From: an uncultured Gammaproteobacteria bacterium
Lineage (GTDB): Bacteria; Patescibacteriota; Patescibacteriia; Magasanikbacterales; GWA2-37-8
Reading direction: 5' to 3'
DNA length: 64,000 nt
Assembly (NCBI GenBank): GCA_964634875.1
Contig: CAZWKA010000006.1
Coordinates: forward strand, 12,173-76,172
Below, piece by piece: positions 5,984-43,700 of this stretch. Each line of letters begins with the position of its first letter. Within the stretch, counting starts at the first letter, position 1. Below the pieces are notes generated by a model that saw only the letters and a program-made list of their open reading frames with translations, was not told the DNA's origin and ran no database searches. Both the position numbers and the translations under genes were made by a program.

Positions 5984-6061
5984 ACAGGAAATAGTTATTA
6001 AAACAGGCCTACTTTAGCGGAAAACAGCGTAAGTGTCAAATGTGTGGGGAAATAAAAAAAC

Positions 6062-6096
6062 TCGATGTACCATCGAGTTTTTTTAGGGGAGCCGCG
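6062..6096. terminator. Bidirectional terminator
   Basis: aaaaaaactcgatg-tacc-atcgagttttttt. Confidence 0.5.
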
Positions 6097-6122
6097 CATG
6101 CCTGGACCAAAAAGATGGTCTG

Positions 6123-6443: not shown

Positions 6444-6573
6444 AAAAAAGGTGGTTTGTCAACCTTTTAGGCTATATTTGTGGCCCTCAAACAGCTTTTG
6501 TAATTATGCGTAGTGTCTAAAAATGAAAGCCCGGGCGCTCGAGGGAGCGCTCCGGGGAAGGGGTTGGTCGTGG

Positions 6574-7155: not shown

Positions 7156-7230
7156 GACATCCTCCTAATCAGGACATTTGTGGCAGCAACCCTTTCACAA
7201 AAAACGTTTTTTGTCAAGGGTTTTAGCTAA

Positions 7231-7262
7231 AAAAAGAACGCCGAGAGGCGTTCTTTTGGGTG
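7231..7262. terminator. Terminator downstream of hppA
   Basis: aaaaaagaacgcc-gaga-ggcgttctttt. Confidence 0.55.
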
Positions 7263-7271
7263 CGAGGGGTT

Positions 7272-9263
7272 TTATTTTAAGAGCAGTCCGACAATGAGTA
7301 AGGCTACGATATTGGCAACTTTGATCATTGGGTTAATCGACGGGCCAGCTGTATCTTTGTATGGGTCGCCAACCGTGTCACCAGTAACCGCTGCTTGGTG
7401 AGCAAATGAGCCTTTGCCGCCGTAGTTACCTTTTTCAATGAATTTTTTAGCGTTGTCCCAAGCGGCACCTCCGGTAGTCATAGAAATAGCAAGGAAAATA
7501 CCAGTAATAATCGTGCCGACCAGGAGGCCGCCCAGCGCCGGGATGCCCAGAAAAACGCCAACCAAGATTGGGGCAGCGACCGGTAAGAGAGCAGGAAGGA
7601 TCATTTGTTGTAGAGCGCCTTTGGTAACGATGTCAGCGGCGCGGGCGTAATCTGGTTTATTGGTGCCCTCCATAATACCAGGAATTTCTTTGAACTGGCG
7701 GCGGACTTCTTCAACAACCTGGCCAGCAACCTTGCCGACTGATTCCATGAGCATGGAACCGAACAGGTATGGTAACAAGCCGCCGATAAAGAGGCCGACC
7801 AAAACTTTCGGATCATTGATTAAGAAAACTGTTGAAGCGGGAAGTTGGTGGGTAAAGTCAGCGAACAAAACGAGTGATGATAAGCCTGCTGCCGCAATCG
7901 CATAGCCTTTCGTAACGGCTTTGGTGGTGTTGCCAACGGCGTCCAGGGGGTCAGTAACAGCTCGCACGCTTTCTGAAAGTTCGGCCATTTCGGCAATACC
8001 GCCGGCATTGTCGGTGATGGGGCCATAGGCATCAATAGTGACGACGATCCCGGTCATCGAAAGCATGCTGACTGCAGCAATCGCAATTCCAAACAAGCCT
8101 GCCAACCAAAACGAACCGAGCATGGCAGCCAAAATGAGGAGTACGGGGACGGCGGTAGATTTCATGGAAACAGCGAGTCCAGCAATAATGTTCGTGCCAT
8201 GTCCGGTAGTACTTGCTTTAGCAATATGTTGGACTGGTGAGTATTCGGTAGAAGTGTAGTAGTCGGTAACAAATACCATGGCAAGCGTCAGGGCGAGACC
8301 GATAACCGCTGTGCCAAAAAGGTGCATAACCGAGAAGCCCGGTAGTCCGCTCAAGAGCCAGCGAGTGATGGGGTAAAAGGCAACTAAAGAAAGGACGCCT
8401 GCAGCGATGAGGCCTTTGTATAAAGCTCTCATGACATTCTTGTCTTTGCCGAGGCGAATGAAAAACGTGCCAATGATTGAAGCGATAATCGAGGCGCCGC
8501 CCAACATAAGCGGAAACACGACCGCCTTGGTGTTGCCAGGGAACAAAAGGCTGGCGAGGAGCATGGCGGCGATTGTTGTAATGGCATAAGTTTCAAAAAG
8601 ATCGGCAGCCATACCAGCACAGTCGCCAACATTATCACCCACATTATCAGCGATGACGGCTGGGTTACGTGGATCATCTTCGGGAATGCCTTTTTCAACT
8701 TTACCAACCAGATCAGCACCCACATCGGCTGCTTTGGTGAAGATGCCTCCGCCGATACGAGCAAAGACAGAAACCAGGCTGCCGCCAAACCCAAGGCCAA
8801 TGAGCGCTGCAAGGTCGCCGTTCGTAACCAGATAAAAGCCAGCAACCCCCAAGAGACCAAGACCGGCAACCAGGAGGCCGGTAACCGAACCGCCGCGTAC
8901 GGCGAGGTTAAGTGCTTCTTTAAAACCAAGTTTGGCTGCTTCGGCAGTACGGACATTGGCTTTGACCGAAATCATCATCCCAACATAGCCAGCCAAACAA
9001 GAAAAACCAGCCCCTACAATGAAGCCAAAGGCTGTGATCCAGTCTAGTCCGAGGCCGATGACAAGAAAGATGACCGCTGCTACCACCCCGATCGTTTTAT
9101 ATTGTCTGAAGAGATACGCTTTAGCACCGGTTTGGATGGCGCGAGCAATCATTTGCATTCGTTCGTCTCCGGCTGGTTGGCGCAGAACCCAGCGGATTAA
9201 GATAAGACCATAAAGGATGGCCAGAACTGCGGGAACGATTGCTCCCAAAACGATGATGAGCAT
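7272..9263 (-). CDS. hppA: Membrane-bound proton/sodium-translocating pyrophosphatase
   Basis: 663 aa polytopic protein with V-PPase motifs (..GDNVGDCAG.., [25 protein letters not shown]). Confidence 0.95.
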
Positions 9264-22901: not shown

Positions 22902-23489
22902 ATGTGTGATCGTAACAAACTGCCTTCGGGAAACACTGGTGAAGAACGAGACTTCTGGGACTGGGTGGGTGCTGCTTACGCCAACCTGCTCGTCGACCAC
23001 GACGAAGTTGTCTTTCCTGTCTCGTTCGAGTGGTTGGTGTGCGATGAGGGTGAGGTAATCTACGGGTTCGAGTTGCTCGCTGACGACACGCTCATTTCAA
23101 CGCCATCTTCCGGCAACCCGCTTGGCAAAACGTATGAAGAACGCCTCTTCTGGAGTTGGGTTCGAGATGTCTACTACGATGTTCTCGGCCAGGTCTTTTT
23201 TGATCGTTTTCGTGTGGAACGCTTGAAGCCCGTTTCGACTCCGGGAGTTGGAGAGGAGGAGTGGTTTTATGAGCTGCTAACCGGTACGTGGATCAAACCC
23301 GTACCCGTCGAGGAACTCCGTCTCGCTGAGGCGGTACCGTTGTCTACTGATGACGTAGTTACGGGCCCGAAGCAGATCTTCTACATCCAGAACCAGGCGC
23401 CTGCCAAGCCGGATGGACCGCCTGCCCCCTTCCACTTCGTAGGACGCATCGTCCTCATGGGCGATAAATACGTCCTTGCTCAGGAGTGA
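22902..23489 (+). CDS. Hypothetical protein with an internal duplication (moderately high GC)
   Basis: Repeated motif EERDFWDWVGAAYANLL / EERLFWSWVRDVYYDVL; no known domain recognised. Confidence 0.5.
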   Translation: MCDRNKLPSGNTGEERDFWDWVGAAYANLLVDHDEVVFPVSFEWLVCDEGEVIYGFELLADDTLISTPSSGNPLGKTYEERLFWSWVRDVYYDVLGQVFFDRFRVERLKPVSTPGVGEEEWFYELLTGTWIKPVPVEELRLAEAVPLSTDDVVTGPKQIFYIQNQAPAKPDGPPAPFHFVGRIVLMGDKYVLAQE

Positions 23490-23496
23490 ACAAAAC

Positions 23497-23533
23497 AAAA
23501 AATCGGCACCAGGTCCACCCTGGTGCTGTTCTG
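23497..23533 (+). terminator. Intrinsic terminator
   Basis: aaaaaatcggcaccagg-tccac-cctggtgctg then ttctgtttttt. Confidence 0.5.
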
Positions 23534-23643
23534 TTTTTTACCGTATTTTACAGTGTAAAAACAGAGTTACTACTGCGTTTTTAACTTGCCAAACCAAAAT
23601 TTTTACGTTATCATGACGCCCACAAGCATTCCAAAAGGTATTT

Positions 23644-23715
23644 GCCCCCGTAGTTCAACGGATCGAACAAACCCGTCCTAAGGGTGAGATAGAGGTTCAA
23701 TTCCTTTCGGGGGCA
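23644..23715 (+). tRNA. tRNA-Arg (anticodon CCT)
   Basis: Acceptor GCCCCCG/CGGGGGC, D-arm GTTC..GAAC, anticodon loop GTCCTAA, T-loop TTCAATT. Confidence 0.75.
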
Positions 23716-23951
23716 CGATAGGAATTGAAGGGGGAGGGTTTGGGAACCGGAAGGTTCCCACCGCTGCTGAGGAGAGCCCACGAGAGGGCGGAAGCCCTGT
23801 TCGTGAAGGATCCGCCGCGGCGGGGACGCGTGAAACTTCCTTTCGAGGGAACGAGCGAAGTTCAAAGTTAAAAGCGAAAAACTAAAAATAATTGAATCGC
23901 CTAGAGCGATACTTTAATTTTAAACTTTGCGTTTTTCACTTTTAGCTTTCC
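23716..23951 (+). other. GC-rich, hairpin-dense 236-nt spacer between two tRNAs (candidate structured RNA, unidentified)
   Basis: gggaaccggaaggttccc, gggcggaagccc and several other stems; no ORF; not a tRNA. Confidence 0.2.
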
Positions 23952-24022
23952 GGGCCTATGGTCTAGTGGTATGACACGGCATTCGCATTGCCGGAGCGGC
24001 AGTCCGATTCTGCCTAGGTCCA
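23952..24022 (+). tRNA. tRNA-Ala (anticodon CGC)
   Basis: G3:U70 identity pair, anticodon stem CGGCA/TGCCG, loop TTCGCAT, T-arm GGCAG-TCCGATT-CTGCC. Confidence 0.75.
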
Positions 24023-24042
24023 CACATTTGGTTGGTTTTTAT

Positions 24043-25539
24043 ATGGGCGAGCATTTTCTTCCACAGCACCCTCAAGAGGTCGAATCTTTAGATCGACCTA
24101 TTGCTGAGTTGCCTTTATCCGAAGCTCGGCAAAAAGTAGATGTTCCATTGTCTTTTTCTAATGAGGCAATGAATTTTTTGGGTAGCGAACATGTTACCGA
24201 GCTCGCCCGGATTATTGAGAGCGAAGAAGTGCGTACCATCGACCTTTTGTGCCTTGCGGGTGAAATGTCGGTAAAGGAAGCTGTTGAATACGCGATGCTT
24301 TTGCCCGAAGTTCGGGCTGCCTATCGCGTGATGGGTGAAAAAGTTGAAGCGCTTAATATCCGCCTGCGTGACAAAAAACTACCCCATTATATTTCGCGAA
24401 GTGTAAAAACAGCAGCGGGTAAAAAAACATATGATGCGCGCCCGATTGAAAATTTTTTTAACGGGGTCAATAATTTTTTTTCGGATGCGTCCAGAAAGAT
24501 CAGTGGGCGTTTGGTTGCCCAAACACTCCTGGGATATGCTGCACAGGAAGTGTACCGGACGCTCACCGTTGATGCATACCGATCACTCGATGCTTTTGAA
24601 GAGGGCGCACTAGATGGGGTTATGCAAGATATGGAACTGCGCGAAAGAAAAGGAGAATTTAAACCAACGGGCGAAGATGGAATTTCTAATCTCGATGCCC
24701 TCAAGGCAATACGTTTTTTTGAATCGTCTCGTTTTAAAACCGAACTTACATCGGCCGGACTATCGAGTAATCCCCCGGCCGAAGATGTTGTCGCGCTTTT
24801 TGAAGAAGTCGCTGATCTGTCGCTATATCGAAGCATTACTTTTACCCATGAAACTGAAAATATTCGGTTTAGCTTTCTGTCGGAAAATAATGATTCGGCA
24901 GTATATCAGCTCCAGAGCCGTTTGCCCGAAATTTGTAAGGTAGAGGTGGCGCTGAGGAAACCCGGGCATTATAAGGAAGCGTCGAAGTTTCCGTTGTCGA
25001 TCGATCGTTTTACGGGTGAACTTTCTACGGTTATGGTGACCAAGCTCTCGTCACATATTGGTAAGGTGGCTGAACTAGGGCTCCGTCATGTGTTGCTTGG
25101 GGAATTGCGCGAGTATTTACTTTCTAAAGAGGATGATATCGCGGAAGCGGAACCAATTGTTCGCCCGCGTAAGGAAGAGCAAAAAGAAACCGCCAGTCTT
25201 ATCGAAGATGGTGGTATGCGTGGCGGCCAGATGCAAAATGTTGAGGTTGCAACTGCAGAGACGGCTGTAGAAGAAACGGTGCCTTTGGTGAGAGTGGCCG
25301 GCGAAAAAGTTTCGTTAAAAAATTTAAAAGGCTTCAAAGGGGGCAGGATTAAAACTGCTTTAGTGAGCCTGCTAGGTGAAGCTAGGGTGCGAGGCTCTCA
25401 TCATATTTTTCGGTGTCGTGACGGTACGACCTATCCAATTAGTCTCCATGATGGGGAAGATGTCGGCACCGGCCTTCTCGGAAAGTGTTTAAAAAAATTT
25501 GGTATCCCGCCCGCAGAACTGCTCGAACAGCTTACCTAA
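24043..25539 (+). CDS. 498-aa hypothetical protein with a C-terminal HicA-like (YcfA) domain
   Basis: C-terminus RVRGSHHIFRCRDGTTYPISLHDGEDVGTGLLGKCLKKFGI matches the HicA pattern GSHH.....G...P.H........L..Q.GI; start moved to the first ATG after the tRNA. Confidence 0.7.
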   Translation: MGEHFLPQHPQEVESLDRPIAELPLSEARQKVDVPLSFSNEAMNFLGSEHVTELARIIESEEVRTIDLLCLAGEMSVKEAVEYAMLLPEVRAAYRVMGEKVEALNIRLRDKKLPHYISRSVKTAAGKKTYDARPIENFFNGVNNFFSDASRKISGRLVAQTLLGYAAQEVYRTLTVDAYRSLDAFEEGALDGVMQDMELRERKGEFKPTGEDGISNLDALKAIRFFESSRFKTELTSAGLSSNPPAEDVVALFEEVADLSLYRSITFTHETENIRFSFLSENNDSAVYQLQSRLPEICKVEVALRKPGHYKEASKFPLSIDRFTGELSTVMVTKLSSHIGKVAELGLRHVLLGELREYLLSKEDDIAEAEPIVRPRKEEQKETASLIEDGGMRGGQMQNVEVATAETAVEETVPLVRVAGEKVSLKNLKGFKGGRIKTALVSLLGEARVRGSHHIFRCRDGTTYPISLHDGEDVGTGLLGKCLKKFGIPPAELLEQLT

Positions 25540-25557
25540 ACACTAAGCTGTTTTTTG

Positions 25558-26334
25558 TTAAGTGCTTGTCTCCATAGCTCTCCCCAAACTCCACAGCAGC
25601 TGAAAGAGTTGTTCAAAAGTGCGGCGGATTACTTTGCTTTCCACTACCCACGCCAAGCCCTCTTCGCGGGTACTAAAAAAAGCCACACTGTCATCCCAGA
25701 AAAAAATCGAAGCTTGGAATGCTAAATCCCGTGGTAAAAACTTTGCCTCGCGCAATTCTCGAACATGAGTCATTCGGGAGTATTTTTTTATTTCCCGTGT
25801 TTCGACGCGCAAGCTTTTGAGAAAAATCTTTTTTTCGATCCGACGTTTCGTAAAATGGAACCGTTCCCCAAAAATATCTTGAATTTCTTTGGCGGCGACA
25901 ATTTCATACAGGGTTTTATTTTTTGCTTCAAGTGCTTCGAGAAAAATATCATTCATGCGTTCGCGGTAGTACAGGCGAATCTTGGCTTTACTTTCTCCCT
26001 GCACTTGGAGTGTCTTCAAAAATGGAAGTATCTCCGCCGCTTCTTCCACTTTGCGTTCCATGATCTGTTTGATGACGCCGGGTTCCCCCGCTTCGTAGAC
26101 GTGGCGAGACTTTCGTTTTGTAATATTCACCACCCCAAAATCTACGAGCCGACCAAGGACTGCCTGCACTGTGGTTACGGGTAGCCCAACGCTCCGAGCC
26201 AACGGAGTGAGTGTCGTTGGTTTAAGCGTTAGCAGTTTTAAGTATACTTGGCGTTCTTTATCGTTCAGCCCAAAGCGTCCGAGTACCTCGTTAATTTCTT
26301 TGCTGCGCAAGGCGGTAATTTTTGGTAAAGACAT
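25558..26334 (-). CDS. TrmB-like winged-helix transcriptional regulator (paralog 1 of 3)
   Basis: N-terminal wHTH (..ERQVYLKLLTLKPTTLTPLARSVGLPVTTVQAVLGRLVDFGVV..) plus a TrmB-like C-domain. Confidence 0.75.
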   Translation of the reverse strand: MSLPKITALRSKEINEVLGRFGLNDKERQVYLKLLTLKPTTLTPLARSVGLPVTTVQAVLGRLVDFGVVNITKRKSRHVYEAGEPGVIKQIMERKVEEAAEILPFLKTLQVQGESKAKIRLYYRERMNDIFLEALEAKNKTLYEIVAAKEIQDIFGERFHFTKRRIEKKIFLKSLRVETREIKKYSRMTHVRELREAKFLPRDLAFQASIFFWDDSVAFFSTREEGLAWVVESKVIRRTFEQLFQLLWSLGRAMETST

Positions 26335-26507
26335 AAACTACTAAATTTTTCGTAGTAATTATATATATGTATTTGCTTTAGTATAGAGTAATTATTTTAT
26401 TGAGTCAAAAAATATACTATAAATTATATAAATAAAAACCTATTTTAAGTAGAGTAGCTTTGTCAGTGAAGTGCTGATGCGACGCTCTTTCACAATGGAG
26501 AAAACAT

Positions 26508-26774
26508 ATGAAGATCCTTAAGGAAGGCCTCTGGAAGAATCCCTGGAGCCACGAGTACGTGTGCAGTGAAAAGGATTGCGCAGCGACGCTCCTCGTCGAG
26601 GAGGCGGATCTGTCCGCGCCCAGCCGATATGACAACGAGGCTGGTCGGTACGAATTCACGTGTCCTATTTGTAGCAAGAAGAACAATGTGGCGGCCAAGG
26701 AAATTCCCCTTCGGATTAAAGAGCTGCTCGACAAGAAGCGGACAGTCAACCGTTCTTGGACGAGTGATCGGTAA
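26508..26774 (+). CDS. Small zinc-ribbon-like protein
   Basis: CSEKDC....CPICSKKN four-Cys arrangement; 88 aa. Confidence 0.45.
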   Translation: MKILKEGLWKNPWSHEYVCSEKDCAATLLVEEADLSAPSRYDNEAGRYEFTCPICSKKNNVAAKEIPLRIKELLDKKRTVNRSWTSDR

Positions 26775-26963
26775 ACTATGTGTCCGCTGCAAAAAAAGTT
26801 TCTCCATCAACACGCTCCTTTTCCGGTCGAAGCCTTGTGCTCGACCGGATCATCTCCCGGGTCGGTTCAATGAACTGGTTCGAGAGATGGCTCCGCGCCA
26901 TCAGTCTGGTTCTTTGACAATAAAAGTACGTTACCTAGTGGGTTTGTGCTCCCAGATTTGAGT

Positions 26964-26998
26964 ATTGACAAACACTAGATTGCAGGCTATAGTTAGCT
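26964..26998 (+). promoter_or_regulatory. Consensus-like promoter TTGACA-17-TATAGT for the purine-salvage operon
   Basis: gtaTTGACAaacactagattgcaggcTATAGT. Confidence 0.55.
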
Positions 26999-27056
26999 GT
27001 TTTTCTGGCCTGCTTGAGCCGTAGTTTTGCTGACCGTTCGTTTACAACCAAACCGA

Positions 27057-27108
27057 TATGTAGTGGAACGGCAGCTTGAAAGATCGATCTGGTGTTCCAC
27101 TACATATC
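27057..27108 (+). other. 14-bp perfect inverted repeat with a 24-nt loop in the operon leader
   Basis: atatgtagtggaac...gttccactacatat, just before the Shine-Dalgarno and the ATG at 27122. Confidence 0.75.
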
Positions 27109-27121
27109 ACAAGGAAAACCT

Positions 27122-27634
27122 ATGAGCCTCTACACTGTCCAAGAAATCGTGATCGGTTCTGATGCTGTACCCAAAGTGATGGCCGGCAAGCTCGCCTGCC
27201 CCAAAGACATCATCGTTGGCCATCCAGCCAAATCGCTGGTGAATAGGCAGCCCTGCGGCTTGAGCGAAATCAGGCAGGGTGCCTGCAACCGGCGGAAGGC
27301 CGCCCGTAAGGGTCGCCCCAGCGGTGACATCTGGATCGGTATCGAGAATGGTGTGGTGTGGCAAGGTGGTAAGTGGTTTGACCTGGCCGCCGTTGCCGGA
27401 TGTAACCGAGCAGGCCGTGAAGTGCTCGTCTGGTCGCTGGCGATCGAGATCCCCACGTGGGTGGTGACCGCAGTTAGAAGACACGGTTTCGATACGACGA
27501 CCATCGGTCTCATGTATGCGGGAGCTGTTAAAGGTGTTGATCACCAGGACATCCACGCTCACCTCACCAACGGCGCCCTGAAACGTGAACAGATCCTGGC
27601 CCAGGCCATCGTAGTCGTGCGGGCTCAGCTGTAG
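27122..27634 (+). CDS. yjjX: Non-canonical purine NTP phosphatase (inosine/xanthosine triphosphatase, YjjX/DUF84-like)
   Basis: SLVNRQPCGLSEIRQGACNRRKAARK....DIWIGIENG parallels E. coli YjjX SxVxxQPxGxxETRxGAxNRxxxAR...DFWVAIEAG. Confidence 0.65.
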   Translation: MSLYTVQEIVIGSDAVPKVMAGKLACPKDIIVGHPAKSLVNRQPCGLSEIRQGACNRRKAARKGRPSGDIWIGIENGVVWQGGKWFDLAAVAGCNRAGREVLVWSLAIEIPTWVVTAVRRHGFDTTTIGLMYAGAVKGVDHQDIHAHLTNGALKREQILAQAIVVVRAQL

Positions 27635-27676
27635 AATTTAGAAAAGCTACGAATTGAAAGGATATAGGTAAAAAGC

Positions 27677-28717
27677 ATGCGTCGTAAGCAGAACATCATC
27701 CTCTACTTCCCGACGATGAAGAAGCTCGCCTACTCCATCGTTGCGAAGCTCCGCAGACTCAAGAACAATAAGTTCGTCGTGCGTGACCCCAAGATGTCTG
27801 AGTTCGCAGACGGGTCGCCGACGAGCGCGATCCCGAATGTCCGTGGCGCTGAGGTCACGGTGGTGGCAGACATGCAGGGTGAGCACCCCAGCATTGCCTT
27901 CATGCGGCTCGCCGAGATCCTCGACGCGCTTGAGCGGGCAGGTGTAGCTGCGGTCACGGTGGTGATGCCGTACCACAGTTTTTCTCGCTCCGATCGCAAG
28001 GCCAAGGGCCGCGAGTCGATCATGGTGGCTCGAATCGCGACTTTCCTCAAGACCTACAACACCCTCAAACGCATCATCACCATCGATCTCCACTCCGACC
28101 AAATCGAGGGGATGTACACTGGCATCAGTGTTACACACCTCTCCGGGTCGCTCATCTTCGCGCCGAAGTGCCGTCCCATGGCCAAGAAGTCCAAGGATCC
28201 GCTCGTCACGATCGCTGGGGACGTCGGTGGTGCTCGCCGGACGCGCAACACCGCTCGTCTTACTGGTGGTCACACAGTGATGATGATCATGGATAAGACT
28301 CGCCCCAAGAAGAACGAGGCCGAGATTATGGGAATTCTTTGTGACCGTAAGGTCGTCAAAGGACTTCAGGCGGTCATCTGCGATGATGTCGTTGATACCG
28401 CTGGCACTCTGGTTGGGGTCATCAAAGAGGCTAAGAAGATGCGGCTGCGGGCGACTACTGTCATGGCGACGCACGGTGTCCTATCACCAAGTAAGGGGAC
28501 GACAGCGATCAGCAAGCTGCGTGCGAGCGGTGTCACCAAGATCGTCCTCTCTGACACAATCCCCCTGTCGGCCGCGAAGAAGGCAGAGGCGGGCGCTTTG
28601 ATCGAAGTCGTCAGTTGCGCTGATCTGCTTGCCTCAACGTTGCATGCCATTACTACCCCGAATGGCAGCGTCAGCCGCCTCTACGACAATGCCCGCGCCG
28701 CCGCCAAGCGCGCCTAA
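27677..28717 (+). CDS. prs: Ribose-phosphate pyrophosphokinase (PRPP synthetase)
   Basis: DLHSDQIEGMY (cf. DLHA.QIQGFF), GDVGGARRTR, and the PRPP-binding loop ICDDVVDTAGTL. Confidence 0.8.
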   Translation: MRRKQNIILYFPTMKKLAYSIVAKLRRLKNNKFVVRDPKMSEFADGSPTSAIPNVRGAEVTVVADMQGEHPSIAFMRLAEILDALERAGVAAVTVVMPYHSFSRSDRKAKGRESIMVARIATFLKTYNTLKRIITIDLHSDQIEGMYTGISVTHLSGSLIFAPKCRPMAKKSKDPLVTIAGDVGGARRTRNTARLTGGHTVMMIMDKTRPKKNEAEIMGILCDRKVVKGLQAVICDDVVDTAGTLVGVIKEAKKMRLRATTVMATHGVLSPSKGTTAISKLRASGVTKIVLSDTIPLSAAKKAEAGALIEVVSCADLLASTLHAITTPNGSVSRLYDNARAAAKRA

Positions 28718-28740
28718 CACACATAAGGAGAACGTCAGTC

Positions 28741-29292
28741 ATGAGCAATATGATAGCTCACTACCTGTCCCAGTTTCTCGAACCTATCCTGGACTTTCCG
28801 CGGCCAGGCATCGTGTTCCGCGACATCAGCCCCCTGCTCCGCAACCCCGAGGCCAAGGAGACGTGCTTCCTCGAGATGGGCCGTCAGCTCGAGCAGGCGG
28901 GCATCGGCTTCGACCTGGTCGGGATGATCGACGCCCGCGGCTACATCTTCGGCGAGCCCATCGCCCAGCGGCATCGTCGCGGCTCCATCATGGTGCGGAA
29001 AGCCGGTATGATGCCGGTGCGCAAGGGCGCCAAGCTCGTGCGGAAGTCGTATGGTCTTGAGTATGGCACGAGCACCATCGAGATGCAGGACTACGCCGTC
29101 GAGAAGGCTCAGCGGGTCCTCATTGTCGACGACGGCCTCGCGACCGGCGGCACGGCCAAGGCAACGGCTGAGCTCGTCGAGGAACTTGGTGGTATCGTCG
29201 CCGGCTTCCTCTTCGTCTTCGAGATTGAGTCCTGTGGTGGACGACAGATGCTTGACGGCTACCAGGTCGTCAGCATCGTCAAGTTCCCGTAG
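28741..29292 (+). CDS. apt: Adenine phosphoribosyltransferase
   Basis: ILDFPRPGIVFRDISPLL.., VLIVDDGLATGGT PRTase motif; 183 aa. Confidence 0.85.
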   Translation: MSNMIAHYLSQFLEPILDFPRPGIVFRDISPLLRNPEAKETCFLEMGRQLEQAGIGFDLVGMIDARGYIFGEPIAQRHRRGSIMVRKAGMMPVRKGAKLVRKSYGLEYGTSTIEMQDYAVEKAQRVLIVDDGLATGGTAKATAELVEELGGIVAGFLFVFEIESCGGRQMLDGYQVVSIVKFP

Positions 29293-29295
29293 TTA

Positions 29296-29305
29296 CCCCC
29301 CCCCC
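29296..29305 (+). repeat. C10 homopolymer 3 nt after the apt stop codon
   Basis: tag-tta-cccccccccc. Confidence 0.9.
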
Positions 29306-29315
29306 GCTTCGTTCC

Positions 29316-29391
29316 CCCTGGCCGCAGGCGTTCTTCTATAGAGCGCCTCGGCCAACACTAAAAACACCCCAATATACTGGGGTGTTTTTAG
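29316..29391 (+). repeat. Repeat unit A (HP1 GC hairpin plus HP2 terminator), a roughly 80%-identical copy of 29909-29986
   Basis: ggccgcaggcg-ttcttctatagag-cgcctcggcc ... aaaacacccca-atatac-tggggtgttttt. Confidence 0.8.
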
Positions 29392-29460
29392 TTTCTACCC
29401 TTGACGCATGCCCAATTTTCTGCTACCACTATTCGGTGCCGCTGTAAGGCGAGGGGGAAC

Positions 29461-29847
29461 ATGCGAAGACTGTTTGTTTCGTTGTTGGCTCTGATGCTCG
29501 TTACTGCTCAGGGCCATGCTGATGGCGGATCGGGCGAGGCCAAAGTCGTTTTCGAGGATCACACCTTTCTGTGTACACCTCGGTACGACGATCGGCCTGG
29601 CTATCCCGACTATTGGATTGTGTTTGTGCCAGTTGCTCCAGACCGGGACACGGGTAGTTCAACTGAAGGGGTGCTCACTGGTTGTGAGGAGACTAACTAC
29701 CAAGTCCATTGCGTTGATGATGTGCCCCACTTCATTTTCGGTCCTGCTGATGGCGTTGAATACCAAGGAGGCAGGGTTCGTACCTGGTCCTTCGAAGATG
29801 GGCGGAAGCGCAAAATGATCCTGCGTTGCGTTGGGCGCGTCAGTTAA
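29461..29847 (+). CDS. Secreted hypothetical protein flanked by repeat units A and B
   Basis: MRRLFVSLLALMLVTAQGHA signal peptide; GAGGGGG Shine-Dalgarno; high GC. Confidence 0.5.
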   Translation: MRRLFVSLLALMLVTAQGHADGGSGEAKVVFEDHTFLCTPRYDDRPGYPDYWIVFVPVAPDRDTGSSTEGVLTGCEETNYQVHCVDDVPHFIFGPADGVEYQGGRVRTWSFEDGRKRKMILRCVGRVS

Positions 29848-29908
29848 ATTCGCAAGCTCAGTTTGTCTCGTCGGCCTACCCGCTATCAGCTGCGGTTAAC
29901 GTACGCTC

Positions 29909-29986
29909 TTTCGGCCGCAGGTTCTCTTCATAAGAGTGCCTCGGCCACTTCTAAAAACACCTCGATACTATCGGGGTGTTTTTATT
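29909..29986 (+). repeat. Repeat unit B (HP1 plus HP2), paralogous to 29316-29391
   Basis: ggccgcagg-ttctcttcataagagtg-cctcggcc ... aaaaacacctcgata-cta-tcggggtgttttt. Confidence 0.8.
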
Positions 29987-30105
29987 TTGCTTACCAAACC
30001 TTATATTACGTAGGTATATTTAATAGTAGTTTATAAGTATCGTTTCCCTTGTCTAGTTTTATCTCTAGTCGGTTTTCCCTTTACATCGTTGCATTAAAAT
30101 TAATT

Positions 30106-30852
30106 CTATAGTTCCACGCTAGTCATCTTTTCACGCGTCCAAATAAGTTCAAACAAGATCCGAAATGTTTCGGAAAGAAGGACGTTTGTCAAAATTGTTC
30201 CAAAGATAGGTTCGTGTAGAGTTATTAAGGCAATATTGTCATCCCATATAAGAATATCTGTTGGTTGATCTTGATGCTCTGGTGGTAAAAGTTTAACTTC
30301 ATAGAACCCTTTAAGTAAGGTTTTGCTTTGCTCGGCGAGCGGCTTGGAGCGTGCACTTAAAATATCTTGAAAAATAATTCCTCGTTTTTTTACTTCAGCA
30401 AAATATCGCCCCAGAAACCCGGGCATTAATTTTTCAATATTATTCGTTGAACCAATAGCAATTATTTTTTGAGACTGAAGTGACGCTGCATATATTTCCT
30501 TAATCTGATCAATTCCTTCATAAAACCGAATTTTTGGTTTATTTTTTTGTGTCGTATACAGGCCGCGCAGATCAGGTAGTACCTGTTGAATTGCCTCTTT
30601 TCTTTTTTCGAGCGCACGTATCAACGATTCCGGATCATTAGCCAAGTAGGCTTTACGTTTGTTGCGTGCGCGCTCTTCAATTAAACCTTTATCTTGGAGT
30701 GAGGCTAGCACGTTATAACAGTTGGTGCGGGCAATTGCTGTGCCTCGTGCCACCTGTGGCGGGCTCGAAGCGCCGTTTTCGAGTAAATACAAATACACCA
30801 GTATTTCAGAATGGTTGAGTCCAGCTAGCTTTAGTTGATCGTGTAAGCTCAT
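30106..30852 (-). CDS. TrmB-like transcriptional regulator (paralog 2)
   Basis: wHTH (..SEILVYLYLLENGASSPPQVARGTAIARTNCYNVLASLQDKGLI..); ATG start at MSLHDQ (the ORF-track start at 30894 is TTG). Confidence 0.75.
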   Translation of the reverse strand: MSLHDQLKLAGLNHSEILVYLYLLENGASSPPQVARGTAIARTNCYNVLASLQDKGLIEERARNKRKAYLANDPESLIRALEKRKEAIQQVLPDLRGLYTTQKNKPKIRFYEGIDQIKEIYAASLQSQKIIAIGSTNNIEKLMPGFLGRYFAEVKKRGIIFQDILSARSKPLAEQSKTLLKGFYEVKLLPPEHQDQPTDILIWDDNIALITLHEPIFGTILTNVLLSETFRILFELIWTREKMTSVEL

Positions 30853-30941
30853 AATGTCAAAATTATATATATCATTTATAATCAATTTAGTCAAGCGATT
30901 ATTAAAAATGTAAAAATAATAGTAGTTATATTATTGACAAT

Positions 30942-31583
30942 ATGGCGATTTTACGGTATGATGAGGAGTTCAAGATTGAGAATGTCTCAATAGTGAACAG
31001 TCGTTCTTTCAAGGAGCAGTGTATGAGCTATAGTGTCAGTCAAGTTGCCGACCCGAGTGATATTGATCTCAAAGAAATACAGGAGAAGATAAAAGGTCTT
31101 GCTCGTGAGTTCGAATGGCTTGCCGGTGAAGGGGCGGAGATTCTGTCTCGCAATGAGCCACTCCCTTACGCTGTGTGGAGTGCTGTTTTTGCGAGAGTCA
31201 GCGATCTCGGACATGAGACGTGCTGGAGCTGCCCACTCCATATCGCGTATTTCGTGAAGGTCGTTGAACGCGGCATCAATGATTTACGCGCTCATCTTCT
31301 CAAACAAGGTCCTGGTGAGGAGCTGAACAGTGACTTCCAGCACCAGTGGTTCTGCAAGCTTTTGCGCCAGTTTGGCGGGGGCAACCTTGGTATCGGCTGT
31401 AGTCGTTTGGTGCCGAGCGAGCTTGCCGCCAACATGCTTGAGCTCCTGCGTACCCGGCTGGTCGAGGTCGTCCAGTGTAAGGACTGGCTTGTGAGCTTGT
31501 CGGTCGAGCGGTTTCGTGCGTTCGACCAGGAGGCGCGGGATATGTACGTAAAAAAGTACAGCGCACACTGGCCGACGAGGTAG
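30942..31583 (+). CDS. Hypothetical protein divergent from TrmB paralog 2
   Basis: 213-aa ORF with its own promoter-like TTGACA immediately upstream; I recognise no motif. Confidence 0.5.
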   Translation: MAILRYDEEFKIENVSIVNSRSFKEQCMSYSVSQVADPSDIDLKEIQEKIKGLAREFEWLAGEGAEILSRNEPLPYAVWSAVFARVSDLGHETCWSCPLHIAYFVKVVERGINDLRAHLLKQGPGEELNSDFQHQWFCKLLRQFGGGNLGIGCSRLVPSELAANMLELLRTRLVEVVQCKDWLVSLSVERFRAFDQEARDMYVKKYSAHWPTR

Positions 31584-32377
31584 TGTTCATTGGTACTGGC
31601 GCTGTTCGCCAATCGCATTTCGCCCACACCCGGTAAGCGAAATGTATCGATCAATTAAGGAGAATAAACCGGGCTCCAATTCTCGCTACAAACATTTGCA
31701 TCGAGTGAGGAGAACATGGGCTATAAGGAAATTGATTGGAAGGCAGAAGCCAGCTGCTACCTAACGTTGCGTGACGAATTGGCTGTGGCAGAGGATCAGC
31801 TGCACTCCGTACGCCATGCGCTATTTACCAATCCTCAAATACCATAAGTATTTAGAGAATAAGCTTAAACAGCTTTTTAAGGAATCATCAGGTTATAGGG
31901 CAGCAGCAAGCTCTCACCTTAATCAAGTAGTTCTTCTTTTATATGGTCTGGAGCGGTGGTTAGTTGAGTGGGGTCTTTAATAAAGTTTGTTCTCTAGTGA
32001 ACTCGGCCGGCCTTCAAAAGCCGGTCTGCTATTTTTTAGTTTTTGTTGTAGGTTGTCCCAAGCTATCCCACAATCCTTCAAACCATAAAGTAAACCAATG
32101 ATGTATTGCCCCATTCTCAACGATTACTCCTGCCAAAAACAGGATGACTGGTTTCTGTAGGCTATTTTAAGTGGAGGTAAGAGCGATGGCAAAGGATTTT
32201 TGTTTGCCGGCGACGCCTTAATTGGCACTTGCTTTGTCAAAGAACAAAAGGAAATTCGATCCTAAGGCTGGTTTTTTGTTTGGAGTAATTATCAAAAGGG
32301 GACAAAACTGTGGATAAGCCAGTGTATAAGTCGCTATTAAGTGGATAAATGTATACACTATTGTATACAAACATATA

Positions 32378-32408
32378 AAACAATGGCTAACATTAGCCAT
32401 TGTTTTAT
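32378..32408. repeat. 13-bp perfect inverted repeat with a 4-nt loop
   Basis: aaaacaatggcta-acat-tagccattgtttt. Confidence 0.85.
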
Positions 32409-32439
32409 ATTTCAGTAAAAAGCTGCTTATCACATACTA

Positions 32440-32472
32440 ATTGTTTCATGTGAAACAATTAGTATGCACCTG
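32440..32472. repeat. 15-bp-arm palindrome containing TGTTTCA-tg-TGAAACA
   Basis: atactaattgtttca-tg-tgaaacaattagtat. Confidence 0.85.
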
Positions 32473-32523
32473 CGCTTTGAATAAGAGACTTATATCTCCT
32501 CTCTGTTTAATTTACAGAAAGGA

Positions 32524-32543
32524 TGTTTCACATGAAACATTTT
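32524..32543. repeat. Third TGTTTCAC-ATGAAACA-type palindrome overlapping the TrmB-3 stop codon; a fourth, perfect copy ttgtttcacgtgaaacaa lies inside the gene near 32690-32712
   Basis: tgtttcacatgaaaca. Confidence 0.8.
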
Positions 32544-33264
32544 AGTTTTTTATCGATTCCCACGCAAGATTAAACAAAGATCGATAGGTCTCAGCGACGT
32601 CACTGCTTTCAATTACTGTGGCGAGCGGTACATCTTTGTATGAGAATATAGCCAAACTATTTCCAAAAATAATGTTATCCGTTGGTAGTTTTGTTTCACG
32701 TGAAACAATTTTGATCTGATGAAATTGGGAGTTGTGTTCTTTGGCAAATTGCAGTGAGGCTTCGTCATAGGGCACTAAATCGCGCACGTGCATTTTTCGA
32801 TCTTCGATAATCTGTAAATATGGCCAAATTTTTTCAAGAACTTCGGGGTGAATGGCGTTAATTGATCCAAAAATATCGAGCTCATTCCAAGTGAAAATTT
32901 CACGGTAAAGGGCTGTAAGGCTTTCAACTCCTTGATAATAACGAATTTTTGGTTTCTCCTTTTTTGAGTTATACAAAGCAGCTAATTCAGGAATAGCCTC
33001 CTTGAGCAGGTGGCTGCGTTGTCGTTCCTCTTCGACCAGTCGTTCTGGTGATTCGGCAGCGTAGATCATGCGACGACCAGGTGTAATGCTTGCCAGCCCC
33101 CGCTCACGAAGTTCTTCCAAAATCAAATAGGTGGTTGGTCTTTTAGTTCCGGCCCGTTTTGACAATTGAGCAACCGAAGCACTGCCGGCCTGAAGAAGTG
33201 CAAGATAGACTTCTGCCTGTTTAGGATGCAGACCGAGTGTGGCAAGGGTTTTTGAGAGTTCCAT
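32542..33264 (-). CDS. TrmB-like transcriptional regulator (paralog 3)
   Basis: wHTH (..AEVYLALLQAGSASVAQLSKRAGTKRPTTYLILEELRERGL..); C-domain closely related to paralog 2 (KPKIRYYQGVESL.. vs KPKIRFYEGIDQI..). Confidence 0.75.
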   Translation of the reverse strand: MELSKTLATLGLHPKQAEVYLALLQAGSASVAQLSKRAGTKRPTTYLILEELRERGLASITPGRRMIYAAESPERLVEEERQRSHLLKEAIPELAALYNSKKEKPKIRYYQGVESLTALYREIFTWNELDIFGSINAIHPEVLEKIWPYLQIIEDRKMHVRDLVPYDEASLQFAKEHNSQFHQIKIVSRETKLPTDNIIFGNSLAIFSYKDVPLATVIESSDVAETYRSLFNLAWESIKN

Positions 33265-40754: not shown

Positions 40755-43700
40755 ATGTTTCGTTTAAGACAAAAACATTTCAAGTCAAAACTTTTCCAAG
40801 CCCTTATGGGTCTCGGAGTGTTTTTGTTTTTTACAACCGCTTTCATTTTTTCTTACAGTCCAGCTGAGGCCGCTCCGACGGGTCCAAGCATTTTTACGTA
40901 CCAAGGCAAACTCTTAAGCAGTGCTAATGCGCCGATCAGTACGGCCGTCATGATGAAATTTGTTTTGTACGATTCGCTGACTGACGGTGCCGCTTTGTAT
41001 AGTGCTGCGGGGACACCGGGGGCACCAACCGCCGTAAGTATTACCCCCTCAAGCGGTATTTTCAGTGTTAATTTGGGTGGGACTGATACTAATCCAGTTG
41101 ATTCGGGTATTTTTAGAGATAATCCGGCTGTGTATCTGGAAGTTACGGTTGGTGCAGAAACTCTGACGCCGCGCAAACAGATTACAGCAAGCCCCTATGC
41201 CTTTAATGCTTTGTACCTCGATGGACAGAGTCTGGATACGAATTCGACCACTGCCTACATTCCACTCTCCGACGACCAAGGAAACTTTCGGTTTAATAAT
41301 ATAACTAGTACCGCCTTTTTCGTTACTGGTACAAGTACGTTAGCCACGACAACGATTAATAGTTCAACTATTACCAATGCAAATGTTACTAACCTCACGG
41401 TTAATGGCACCGTTTCATTTCTGAGTAATTCGTTGTCGGATGCCATGATTCCAGACACGATTACCGCGAGTAATTATTTGTTACTTGCTGGTGGTACCCT
41501 TGGTGGCGATCTGGCCTTTGGAGGCAATGATATCACGGGGCTCAATGATTTGAGTTTGAACGGCACCTTGACGAACAGTGGTCTAACACTGCTCGCGGGC
41601 GGTTTTATCGCCTCCGCTTCGTCAACCGTCAACGCCCAGCTCAATGTTCAAGGGCCGCTCAGCGCCTCTTCAACTCTTGTTGTAGCGGCCACTTCAACGT
41701 TCGCAACAGGGGTTGGTATCGCTACTTCGTCGCCGTTGGCTGCCCTTACTATCCAAGACGGTAGCATTTTAGCTGTCGGGAGCGCCGGTGGCACACCGTA
41801 CCAAGGGCCTGGTACACGACTAATGTGGGTTCCTAATAAAGCCGCTTTCAGAGCCGGATACGTTAATGGCTCACAGTGGGATGCTGCAAACATTGGTATT
41901 TACTCCACAGCATTCGGTGAAAATAATCAGGTGTCAGGTGACCGCGCGTTTGCGGGCGGTGCTGGCAATACTGTGAGTCAAACGGCCTCGGTTGCCTTTG
42001 GTGGTAGTAATACGGTAAGTGTTACTTATTCGGGCGCATTTGGTTTAAGTAATATAATTAACGGCGGCGGTGGCGGTTTCGCCTTTGGTATGAACAACAC
42101 GGTGAGTGGAGCGAGTTCTGCAATTGCCCTGGGTACAGGTAACAGTTCTGCTGGGGGCAGCGGTTCAACTGCTATTGGAAGTGCCAACAGCGCAGGTGGA
42201 ACAACAGCGATTGCTCTGGGTTCAAATATGTCGGTCAGTGGAAATAATTCAGTTGGTATCGGGCTTGATACAAATAATCGAACTCTGTCTCGAAACAATA
42301 CATTGGCGATTATGGGTGGCAATGTTGGTATTGGCACGTTGACCCCAGGTTATTTACTTTCGGTAAGCGGAACGCTGGCAGTCAGTGCTACCTCCACATT
42401 TGTCACTACAACTGCGGTGAGTTCTACAATTGAAACAGCTAATATCGCTTCGTTGTTTGCTAATACAGCAACAATTACCTCGCTCACTGTTACCAATTGT
42501 ACCGGGTGCGGTGGAGGGGTTTCGCTGGCTGCTAATCAGACTTTTACTGGTTTAAATACTTTTGCGGCAACCACAACGCTTGCAACTACTACGATTGGGG
42601 GAAGTCTTACTCCTTCAACCACTAACTTTTACGACTTAGGCACTTCTTCCACGCAGTGGAGATATTTAAATGTTTACGGAGGTGTTTTTCAGGCGGATGG
42701 TGTCACCACGTCTTCTTTAGAACAGCATCAACTCATTCTTGGTCAAGCTGTGGGGTATGATAAAGGTAAATTCTATATTGATGCCAGCGGCAATATTAGT
42801 GCTTCTGGCTCACTTCGGCTTGCCGGCAATGTTTTGCCATCTGCGCGGCCATCGTTTACAGTGACAGCGCGTACTACAAGTACGCTGAGTTCGGTTTTTG
42901 ATGCGGGTGGTGGAGGAGACAGAAATATTTCAATGGTAATTAATGCTGACGGTTTTCCTATAGTAGCTTTTACTGCCAATGCCAATGATTTACGGGTAGT
43001 AAAATGTGGAAACGCTGATTGCTCGGCAGGGAATATAGACACGGTTGTTGCTGTAAATGATGTAATCGGTCAGTCAAATTCTATGGCACTTGGATCCGAT
43101 GGCTTGCCAGTTATTGCGTATCAAGGCGCTGGCAGTGGAAGCGTGCACGTTATTCACTGTGGTAATTTGGCGTGTAGTAGTGGAAATACCACCACTGATG
43201 TTAACGGATCAAATCAAGGAACATACTTATCGTTGGCGATTGGTATTGATGGAATGCCTGGAATTGCTGTTTTTGACGTGAATAATGATGTTCGGTATAT
43301 CAAGTGTCTCAATTTGACCTGTTCGGCCAGTCAAGACAATCCAGTGGATGTTTCCGCAACTATTTCAACAGGTCATTATATTTCGTTGGCCATCGCCAAT
43401 AACGGTTATCCAATGATGGCATATTATAATCCAGATAAAACATCTTTGGACTACGCGCTTTGTGGCGATCCTGCTTGCAGCGATCGAGCCAAAATTACCA
43501 CAACTACAGTAGATAACACTGCTGACCAAGGGCAGTATGTTTCTTTGGCTGTTGGTTCAGATGGTCTTCCGGTTATGTCGTACCGCGACCCAACCTTTAA
43601 TCGTCTTATCGTGACGCGTTGCTTTAGCATGCTGTGCAATGGCGCAACAGATGGGGCAGTTTTGTCTAGTGGCGACTATGCAGGAGCAGGTATATACAGT

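Follow-up and report, generated by a model that had tools for sequence, protein, structure and literature searches.

The locus and its coding sequence

The stretch of DNA analysed here (64 kb, hereafter the window) is chromosomal and lies near oriC in a Magasanikbacteria-like CPR genome. Core genes in the region encode DnaA, PolA, the Pol III delta subunit, RmuC and PRPP synthetase. A sequence-only reading of the locus had described a 498-aa protein just 3' of a tRNA-Arg, a structured spacer and a tRNA-Ala, and the ORF at 24043-25539 (P0001) confirms this arrangement. The features identified are as follows.

23586-23614, + strand: sigma-70-like promoter match, TTGCCA-17-TATCAT (consensus match alone)
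23644-23716, + strand: tRNA-Arg, anticodon CCT (ARAGORN; Rfam RF00005, 53.7 bits)
23717-23862, + strand: GC-rich, multi-hairpin half of the spacer (fold -60.1 kcal/mol, z -2.3)
23860-23951, + strand: AT-rich part of the spacer, a 92-nt long hairpin (z -4.3 on the + strand, -3.6 on the - strand)
23952-24023, + strand: tRNA-Ala, anticodon CGC (ARAGORN; Rfam RF00005, 56.8 bits)
24043-25539, + strand: CDS of the 498-aa single-chain HicA-family protein P0001 (ORF call, homologue alignments)
24070-24822, + strand: all-helical N-terminal subdomain, aa 10-260 (AlphaFold, pLDDT mostly above 90)
24838-25122, + strand: alpha/beta subdomain, aa 266-360, beta-beta-alpha-beta-beta-alpha (AlphaFold, column conservation)
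25123-25311, + strand: disordered acidic, Pro-rich linker, aa 361-423 (pLDDT about 50, composition)
25312-25536, + strand: HicA RNase domain, aa 424-498, dsRBD-like, alpha-beta-beta-beta-alpha (Pfam, hhalign, PDB profile match, AlphaFold)

The P0001 ORF runs from an ATG at 24043 to a stop codon at 25537-25539, and the start is supported by the positions of the homologues in two alignments (A1 and A2). A longer ORF from 23971 was rejected, because its start would fall within tRNA-Ala and the NCBI product for this gene likewise has 498 aa. Positions 23994-28567 of the window recur with 100 % identity in an independently made Logan assembly (L049), and the gene is therefore not an assembly artefact. 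Its G+C content (0.46) matches that of the window.

ARAGORN and Rfam agree on both tRNA genes, and the spacer between them was correctly recognized as structured in the sequence-only reading, but it is 235 nt long (23717-23951) rather than 236 nt. Its predicted fold (-86.8 kcal/mol) has a z of -4.0 relative to dinucleotide shuffles, and no Rfam family matched it even at E <= 10. The AT-rich hairpin consists of 24-nt imperfect inverted arms (inverted repeat I1) with an inner hairpin, and ends 1 nt before tRNA-Ala. A 29-nt stretch at the tRNA-Arg 3' end is imperfectly repeated (23701-23729 and 23837-23865, 76 % identical), and the two copies flank the GC-rich half. When relatives of the spacer were sought in a metagenome scan using a 21-mer from the hairpin, all 20 matches were to one unrelated high-GC terminator and were thus attributed to chance.

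The gap between tRNA-Ala and the P0001 start is 19 nt, and no terminator-like site was found within it. The promoter match, 30 nt upstream of tRNA-Arg, is a possible promoter of a tRNA-tRNA-CDS unit, though the number of such matches in the region is not above that in shuffles. The two tRNA genes are probably mere neighbours of P0001, with which they perhaps share a transcript. The sequence TGCGTTTTTMACTT is found upstream of both tRNAs and has 7 matches in the window versus 2.3 expected; as a tRNA-linked motif it was rejected, its placement relative to the tRNAs being inconsistent.

The C-terminal HicA domain

On profile and model evidence, the last 75 residues of P0001 are a genuine, complete HicA domain. 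The Pfam profile PF07927 (HicA_toxin; gathering score 27) scored 30.8 bits (E 3.3e-7) when only the last 69 aa were searched and 26.4 bits with full-length P0001, and individual matches to it were found in 72 of 89 members of the family described below. Comparison of the C-terminal alignment of the family with 11 canonical HicAs using hhalign gave a probability of 99.15 % (E 3.7e-19) over 68 columns, helix alpha1 included, and the family profile also matched PDB entry 1WHZ (E 2.2e-4). In the AlphaFold model the domain is made up of helices at 433-444 and 476-486 and strands at 448-450, 453-457 and 463-467, with a pLDDT of about 95. A BFVD entry named 'HICA protein' superimposes on the domain (TM 0.63, rmsd 3.1 A, 67 columns) with a non-significant E-value, and a Foldseek search of the PDB with this small domain found no significant match.

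The GSHH sequence occupies aa 451-454 (nt 25393-25404). Within it, the translation places the catalytic G451-S452-H453 at nt 25393-25401, with a conserved H469 further on. Mutagenesis has shown that HicA needs its Gly-x-His residues both to be toxic and to act as an RNase, and in complexes HicB covers them; the catalytic pair in the Burkholderia pseudomallei HicA is Gly22/His24 (PMC11594946). G451 is kept in 85 of the 89 family members, S452 in 84/89, H453 in 87/89 and H469 in 80/86. Alignment of the family shows strong purifying selection on the catalytic Gly-x-His across about 100 clusters, and the HicA domain of P0001 is predicted to be a catalytically competent endoribonuclease. The sequence-only reading had proposed a C-terminal HicA-like domain, to stand or fall on profile comparison and on conservation of the catalytic His in homologues, and the hhalign result and the retention of H453 both came out in its favour.

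The N-terminal module and linker

The N-terminal approximately 360 aa are modelled as the helical and alpha/beta subdomains (AlphaFold pLDDT 87). Conserved columns in the helical subdomain include D67, G73, E79, Y83 and L87-P88-E89, and an Arg that is conserved in the family aligns with A159 and is lacking in P0001. The alpha/beta subdomain carries C298 and the family motif [LI]DRxTGEL (aa 320-327). The linker that follows is 42-128 aa long, depending on the family member, is rich in E (15.7 %) and P (8.5 %), and has a mean pairwise identity of 15 %.

As previously noted from the sequence, this part of the protein contains no recognizable domain. It has no match in Pfam, NCBIfam, PADLOC, PHROGs or the PDB sequences, and the helical subdomain has neither a family match nor a fold match. 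No HicB similarity, in sequence or fold, was detected in the module; no HTH or RHH DNA-binding family was detected in any member, and none of the PADLOC models matches P0001.

The mean pairwise identity is 35 % for the HicA domain versus 17-18 % for the N-terminal subdomains, and by the alignments the rate of evolution of the module is several times that of the HicA domain. The tandem paralogues found at one locus (L050) illustrate this; their HicA domains are 81 % identical (dN 0.17) and their N-termini 34 % (dN 0.71). As dS is saturated in both regions, the similarity of the HicA domains is not due to recent gene conversion.

A family found in CPR/Patescibacteria

An exhaustive HMMER scan of 1.84 billion representatives recovered 106 matches, nearly all of 430-630 aa and with one layout. 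P0001 is thus not an orphan. It belongs to a previously uncharacterized family of approximately 500-residue proteins, comprising about 100 clusters with the same architecture and confined, as far as seen, to ultra-small CPR/Patescibacteria. A family with a conserved architecture could not have been recognized in the sequence-only reading.

Family membership derives solely from the exhaustive scan. A word-indexed homologue search returned the query alone, both with P0001 and with the 89-sequence alignment, and one scan of GTDB genomes gave no match. A GTDB scan with the pattern R[VI][RS]GSHHIF yielded, among the matches listed, only canonical short HicAs, for example one paired with HicB in a Peribacteria MAG (L004). 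Scanning viral and metagenome sequences for the N-terminal motif LDRSTGE revealed no relative. Viral contigs, phage genomes and plasmids yielded no family member either, and there is therefore no sign of mobility.

Two proteins, P0012 and P0049, retain the N-terminal module and have a different C-terminal region, which was examined as a candidate degenerate HicA; its hhalign probability of a match to HicA is 0.3 % and its AlphaFold confidence is low. The cluster that includes P0001 has 1 member, and that of DnaA from the same genome has 7.

Genomic context

P0001 is flanked by the two tRNAs and a 195-aa orphan upstream, and by a convergent TrmB-like gene downstream. The observation that no HicB-like gene is adjacent was upheld and extended; a low-power HMM search detected no HicB-like ORF next to P0001 or anywhere in the 64-kb window, and at ten independent loci the Pfam annotations precomputed for the genes called nearby include no HicB. 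The neighbourhoods of the family gene in nine other genomes are unrelated, and a tRNA adjoins it in only one (L016, where tRNA-Phe is 74 nt downstream), and the spacer and tRNAs of P0001 are absent from the other family loci. An all-vs-all BLAST of seven loci found no shared neighbour. The family gene is shown by these comparisons to be chromosomal in CPR/Patescibacteria genomes and to have neither HicB nor another conserved partner gene.

Seven or eight of the ten loci are plain housekeeping neighbourhoods in genomes of about 1 Mb, and the contigs that carry the family gene are 0.36-0.92 Mb. An RluA-type pseudouridine synthase gene is 12 nt 3' of the family gene in L012, tRNA_edit genes are 1-2 kb away in L016 and L050, and small or unknown unannotated ORFs flank several loci. 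Two of the ten loci adjoin restriction-modification (R-M) or toxin-antitoxin (TA) genes. In L052 the family gene separates genes for an MmeI-like MTase, an SNF2-PLD protein and an HNH protein from a PemK TA pair, and its neighbours in L022 are Arr, DUF3644 and a type I R-M system. The contigs of a relative with a 92 %-identical DnaA probably stop short of the locus orthologous to P0001.

Comparison with known HicA systems and fused toxins

To our knowledge, fused HicA proteins have been catalogued bioinformatically and none has been characterized. With its approximately 100 clusters, the present family is a clearly bounded addition to them. Its N-terminal module, modelled with confidence, has no detectable relative in Pfam or the PDB.

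The closest described group is among the monocistronic fused HicA proteins that Gerdes (mBio 2024) placed in classes 11-13, suggesting CapRel-like regulation (PMC10865869). In Class 13, fused HicBA (exemplar WP_067334119.1), HicA is fused to a large N-terminal domain (PMC10865869). Class 13 and the P0001 family are both monocistronic, with a mainly helical N-terminal region, a canonical HicA at the C-terminus and no separate hicB, and the functions of both are predicted only. However, Class 13 proteins are 340-440 aa long whereas the P0001 family spans 430-630 aa (498 here) and has, in addition, an alpha/beta subdomain and a long disordered acidic linker. The exhaustive search did not recover a group of full-length 340-440-aa members, and the shorter matches look like fragments. 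Class 14 SMC-HicA fusions of the same author also have a large helical N-terminus and a C-terminal HicA, but include an SMC/ABC ATPase and a long coiled coil, neither of which was found in the P0001 family (Pfam, 89 members; no structural match).

The toxin domain is homologous to that of the canonical type II HicAB systems (for example Escherichia coli HicAB, Yersinia pestis HicA3B3 and B. pseudomallei HicAB) and shares with canonical HicAs the catalytic Gly-x-His and the conserved second His. P0001 differs in that it is 8 times longer than a HicA toxin and lacks a hicB gene and an HTH/RHH domain, and in that no partial RNase H domain like that of HicB was detected by sequence. CapRelSJ46 and EzeT are experimentally characterized single-chain fused toxin-antitoxins, and the regulatory domain of CapRel doubles as a phage sensor (PMC10865869). 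The logic proposed by analogy for P0001 is the same, a single polypeptide combining a toxin domain with a regulatory domain that acts in cis, but the domains are unrelated (a pyrophosphokinase or kinase toxin in CapRelSJ46/EzeT, a HicA RNase domain in P0001), and the order differs in that the toxin domain of P0001 is C-terminal.

A possible cis-restrained RNase and the alternatives

The best available reading, already among those offered by the sequence-only reading as a fused toxin-antitoxin or HicA-armed protein, is that P0001 is a monocistronic, single-chain, cis-regulated HicA-type RNase acting as a fused toxin-antitoxin or sensor-effector switch, and we put its chances at about even. The HicA domain (aa 424-498), tethered by the 42-128-aa disordered acidic linker to a lineage-specific module of approximately 360 aa, would be held off by docking of that module onto it in cis. 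The docked module would thereby fill the role that HicB has in trans, where it is HicB that masks the catalytic His. A signal would free the RNase to cut cellular and/or invader RNA, leading to translation arrest. The candidate signal is a foreign (phage) or cellular ligand bound by the variable N-terminal module, or alternatively proteolysis of the linker. The AlphaFold model of P0001 has a pTM of 0.84 despite about 75 disordered residues, which would be roughly expected only if the HicA domain were confidently placed relative to the N-terminal module; the P0012 variant, with its C-terminus unmodelled, has a pTM of 0.70. From this pTM arithmetic we infer that the module may contact, and could inhibit, the HicA domain. 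The contexts of L052 and L022, and the different C-terminal regions of P0012 and P0049, lend a conflict-system flavour.

A more specific version, which we offer only tentatively, is that the module has a new fold and senses phage or host molecules, releasing the tethered RNase in a one-gene abortive-infection or growth-arrest switch. In the CPR/Patescibacteria, which are ultra-small bacteria, CRISPR is largely absent, and an arms race would explain the fast-diverging N-terminus, tandem paralogues included. Should the module prove to inhibit in cis or to act as a sensor, the family would provide a simple single-protein system for studying restraint and release of an RNase toxin, and would join the small number of candidate immune or stress switches from bacteria whose genomes are approximately 1 Mb. 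Counting against a cis-regulated switch, no likeness to HicB was detected in the module, P0001 has no PADLOC match, the family shows no sign of mobility, the housekeeping contexts of seven or eight of the ten loci also fit a role in cellular RNA metabolism, and a domain that is merely less constrained would likewise evolve faster.

Such a cellular role is the reading that we consider rather unlikely but would weigh most seriously against the switch. The module would be a substrate-targeting or ribosome/RNA-binding platform that brings the HicA nuclease to defined RNAs of the cell, such as precursors of tRNA or rRNA or certain mRNAs, and P0001 would be a CPR-specific processing enzyme, not a toxin, supplying a missing piece of CPR RNA metabolism, of which little is known. 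The core chromosomal neighbourhoods in tiny genomes, the lack of any mobility signal, the start of P0001 19 nt after tRNA-Ala with no terminator between them, and the tRNA-Phe, pseudouridine synthase and tRNA_edit genes near the family gene in L016, L012 and L050 are all consistent with this. However, the loci have no conserved neighbour, and in any CPR genome it is common for a gene to have RNA-related neighbours. A housekeeping enzyme would not usually have tandem paralogues whose N-termini have diverged so strongly, nor R-M and TA neighbourhoods, known HicA domains cleave RNA with little specificity (PMC11594946), and the cluster sizes of P0001 (1) and DnaA (7) are a weak hint that the gene is not core in the population. 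An enzymatic role of either kind is also favoured over a non-catalytic, double-stranded-RNA-binding C-terminal domain that leaves the real work to the N-terminal module. The HicA fold is dsRBD-like (PMC10865869), and the module does have conserved polar positions (D67, E79, Y83, [LI]DRxTGEL and C298), but the Gly-Ser-His is nearly invariant, which binding alone does not require, and HicA is the most conserved part of the protein; we consider this alternative improbable.

Since unrestrained HicA is normally toxic, something must neutralize it, and P0001 might instead be the toxin of a conventional two-component system whose antitoxin is encoded elsewhere or is a small protein or an RNA overlooked in the vicinity, such as one made from the unusually structured spacer or from the small or unknown ORFs that flank several loci. 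We give this little credence, as TA partners are almost always adjacent, yet the low-power HMM found no HicB-like segment in the window, the seven loci share no neighbour, and the spacer and tRNAs are missing elsewhere. The suggestion that the tRNA locus served as an integration hotspot, making P0001 the cargo of a mobile element, fared worst, and we regard it as very improbable. It could draw on the two adjoining tRNAs, on the repeat of the tRNA-Arg 3' end (29 nt, 76 % identical) 136 nt downstream, and on the break in the L049 assembly within tRNA-Ala. However, integrase, recombinase and phage genes are absent within about 10 kb, relatives elsewhere are not tRNA-linked and none is in the viral, phage and plasmid collections. 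The surroundings are core chromosome, with a G+C content that the gene matches, and the repeat brackets 136 nt of the spacer, with the P0001 gene lying outside it.

The HicA domain

The C-terminus of P0001, the 498-aa HicA-family protein encoded in the window, is a genuine and complete HicA domain. Pfam HicA_toxin matched its last 69 aa with 30.8 bits (E 3.3e-7) and the whole protein with 26.4 bits, and a PHROGs 'toxin' family matched the same residues. The profile built from P0001 and its homologues (the family) also matches 1WHZ, a Thermus HicA-like structure (E 2.2e-4). An HHpred-type check, suggested in the sequence-only reading, was significant: hhalign of 16 family C-termini against 11 canonical HicAs gave a probability of 99.15% (E 3.7e-19, 68 columns), with GSHH paired to GSHH and helix alpha1 included. 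AlphaFold places aa 433-486 in an alpha-beta-beta-beta-alpha arrangement (pLDDT about 95), for which the best BFVD small-domain structural match was a phage 'HICA protein' (TM 0.63, rmsd 3.1 A), at an E-value that was not significant.

Mutagenesis has shown that HicA depends on Gly-x-His both for toxicity and for RNase activity; in complexes, HicB masks this motif (PMC11594946). Its counterpart in P0001 is G451-S452-H453. In the 89-member alignment, G451 is conserved in 85/89, S452 in 84/89 and H469 in 80/86; H453, the catalytic His of GSHH whose conservation had been in question, is retained in 87/89.

The family and its N-terminal module

Word-indexed searches for homologues of P0001 returned the query alone. 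When 1.84 billion representatives were scanned exhaustively with HMMER, 106 proteins passed E <= 1e-3; almost all measure 430-630 aa and align over both N- and C-terminal parts. PF07927 was matched individually by 72 of the 89 aligned members, and no second Pfam family recurred. Source names include 'hypothetical protein [Candidatus Peregrinibacteria bacterium]' (KKU79282.1) and 'predicted RNA binding protein YcfA (HicA-like mRNA interferase family)'.

As had been read from the sequence, the N-terminal part of P0001 contains no recognisable domain, with no match in Pfam, NCBIfam, PADLOC, PHROGs or PDB sequences. At the sensitivity of the scans, IMG/VR and the phage and plasmid collections likewise contained no N-terminal homologue. 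Conserved N-terminal positions in the family alignment are D67, G73, E79, Y83, LPE 87-89 and C298, together with the motif [LI]DRxTGEL at 320-327 and an Arg in the column of residue 159, where P0001 has Ala. Between this module and HicA runs an acidic, Pro-rich linker of 42 to 128 aa, depending on the member. Across the family, pairwise identity averages 35% for HicA, 17-18% for the two N-terminal subdomains and 15% for the linker.

One locus, L050, carries tandem paralogues (5858-7423 and 7451-8935, 28 nt apart) that are 81% identical in HicA (dN 0.17) and 34% identical in the N-terminal module (dN 0.71). As dS is saturated in both, the likeness of their HicA domains reflects purifying selection rather than recent gene conversion. 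In two family proteins, P0012 and P0049, the N-terminal module and linker are retained, and HicA is replaced by a different C-terminal region of ~110 aa. This region had no Pfam or PDB match and no detectable HicA signal (hhalign 0.3%), and was modelled by AlphaFold with low confidence. A canonical overlapping hicB-hicA pair was seen in a Candidatus Peribacteria MAG (L004, 2124-2655), hence ordinary two-gene HicAB modules also occur in CPR bacteria.

The tRNA locus and the P0001 gene

Features of the locus, in window positions:
23504-23528, strong bidirectional terminator-like hairpin closing the upstream orphan gene
23586-23614, promoter-like site preceding tRNA-Arg
23644-23716 (+), tRNA-Arg(CCT), ARAGORN and Rfam in agreement
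23717-23862 (+), GC-rich multi-hairpin half of the spacer, fold z -2.3
23860-23951, AT-rich 92-nt long hairpin with 24-nt imperfect inverted arms, ending 1 nt before tRNA-Ala, z -4.3 on + and -3.6 on -
23952-24023 (+), tRNA-Ala(CGC), ARAGORN and Rfam in agreement
24043-25539 (+), P0001 CDS, 498 codons from ATG, 19 nt after tRNA-Ala

The 235 nt spacer between the tRNAs, made up of these two halves, folds at -86.8 kcal/mol (z -4.0 against dinucleotide shuffles), and for both halves the opposite strand gives similar z values. The initial description of a HicA-like C-terminus beside two tRNAs with a structured spacer was borne out by ARAGORN, Rfam, Pfam, hhalign and the fold z. No Rfam family matched the spacer, at a threshold as loose as E <= 10, or the 92-nt hairpin, and a metagenome scan with a spacer 21-mer found no relatives for a covariation test. 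The 3' end of tRNA-Arg recurs 136 nt downstream as a 29-nt imperfect direct repeat (23701-23729 and 23837-23865, 76% identical), the two copies bracketing the GC-rich half. The first 14 nt of the spacer (23716-23729) are 93% complementary to the T-arm and acceptor of tRNA-Arg (23696-23709). These features could be the relic of an insertion or of a partly duplicated tRNA, or else a structure used in processing.

A longer ORF from 23971 was set aside, as its start would fall inside tRNA-Ala and the NCBI product is the 498-aa form; homologues begin at the position equivalent to the P0001 start. A Logan assembly from another run (L049, SRR12762304) is 100% identical to window 23994-28567. Since a terminator scan found no terminator-like site between tRNA-Ala and the CDS, it is plausible that the tRNA genes and the CDS share one transcript.

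The family gene in other genomes

Another nine independent loci were examined (L012, L016, L017, L020, L022, L024, L050, L051 and L052), on contigs reaching 0.36-0.92 Mb, as would suit small CPR genomes. The surroundings of the family gene differed in every locus, and when ORFs within 6 kb were compared by all-against-all BLAST for seven loci, no neighbour proved to be shared.

Gene neighbourhood by locus:
L012, AstE/AspA-like gene, RluA-type pseudouridine synthase, ATP synthase operon
L016, SNase gene, tRNA-Phe
L017, SLH protein, Ldh
L022 (9712-17566), Arr, DUF3644, type I R-M genes HsdR, HsdS and HsdM
L024, T4SS pilins
L051, SOR_SNZ, CPSase
L052 (1-10405), MmeI-like methyltransferase, SNF2-PLD and HNH proteins on one side, PemK TA pair on the other

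Settings are defence-flavoured in two loci, L022 and L052. The lack of an adjacent HicB, remarked on from the window alone, extends to all ten loci. Because L016 alone among the other loci has an adjoining tRNA, the proximity of tRNA genes to the P0001 gene is most likely incidental.

Proposed control of the HicA domain

A partnerless HicA that is predicted to be catalytically intact must be under control of some kind. On the simplest reading, the N-terminal module would act in cis as HicB does in trans, and the RNase might be released by a ligand or by cleavage of the exposed linker. The AlphaFold pTM is 0.84 for P0001 despite ~75 disordered residues, and 0.70 for a variant with the C-terminus not modelled; the high value is what would be expected if HicA were confidently docked on the N-terminal module. 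Such cis-control was proposed by Gerdes for fused HicA classes 11-13 (PMC10865869), and CapRelSJ46 and EzeT are cited there as demonstrated cases of the same logic. HicA fusion is a known kind; neither this family nor its N-terminal module has been described. Among described categories the family comes nearest to Class 13, in which monocistronic proteins of 340-440 aa combine a helical N-terminus with a HicA domain at the C-terminus (PMC10865869). However, the family was set against Class 13 by description only, and as size and sub-architecture differ we do not file it there.

The main rival explanation is a lineage-specific RNA-processing RNase, which would suit the mostly housekeeping neighbourhoods and the absence of any mobility signal. 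However, diverged tandem paralogues, occasional defence-island settings and the lack of a conserved RNA-metabolism neighbour argue against it. The sequence-only reading had also raised a fused toxin-antitoxin, a HicA-armed effector or part of an integrated element. A fused or self-contained HicA agrees with the present results, whereas a gene within a tRNA-integrated element has little support: no integrase was found in its window neighbourhood, its G+C (0.46) is ordinary for the window, and the sole tRNA-derived repeat encloses 136 nt of spacer, not the gene.

The surrounding window

The window lies in the core chromosome beside oriC, with genes for DnaA, trigger factor, H+-PPase, PolA, Pol III delta subunit, RmuC, PRPP synthetase and YchF; the closest named DnaA relatives are from Candidatus Magasanikbacteria / Patescibacteria (70-75% identity). 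L049, an independent assembly of the same strain, breaks off inside tRNA-Ala, and for a relative whose DnaA is 92% identical, two contigs (L045 and L046) would end near window ~22.3 kb if collinear. The 90% cluster of P0001 has one member, versus seven in the DnaA cluster. Together these could hint at strain variability around the locus, or merely at assembly breaks.

Upstream of the tRNAs, a 195-aa orphan ORF (22902-23489, +) matched no family and has, by eye, an internal repeat (ERDFWDWVGAAY... and ERLFWSWVRDVY...). A stretch of 8 kb holds three winged-helix regulators of the TrmB family (25558-26334, 30106-30894 and 32542-33264, all -); the first is convergent with the P0001 gene, and the stop codons of these two lie 19 nt apart. 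G+C shifts sharply across 27000-33000 (0.56-0.59 at 27-30 kb; 0.37 at 30-31 kb and 32-33 kb), and two consecutive giant ORFs follow on the + strand, at 40755-46013 (1752 aa) and 46095-51731 (1878 aa).
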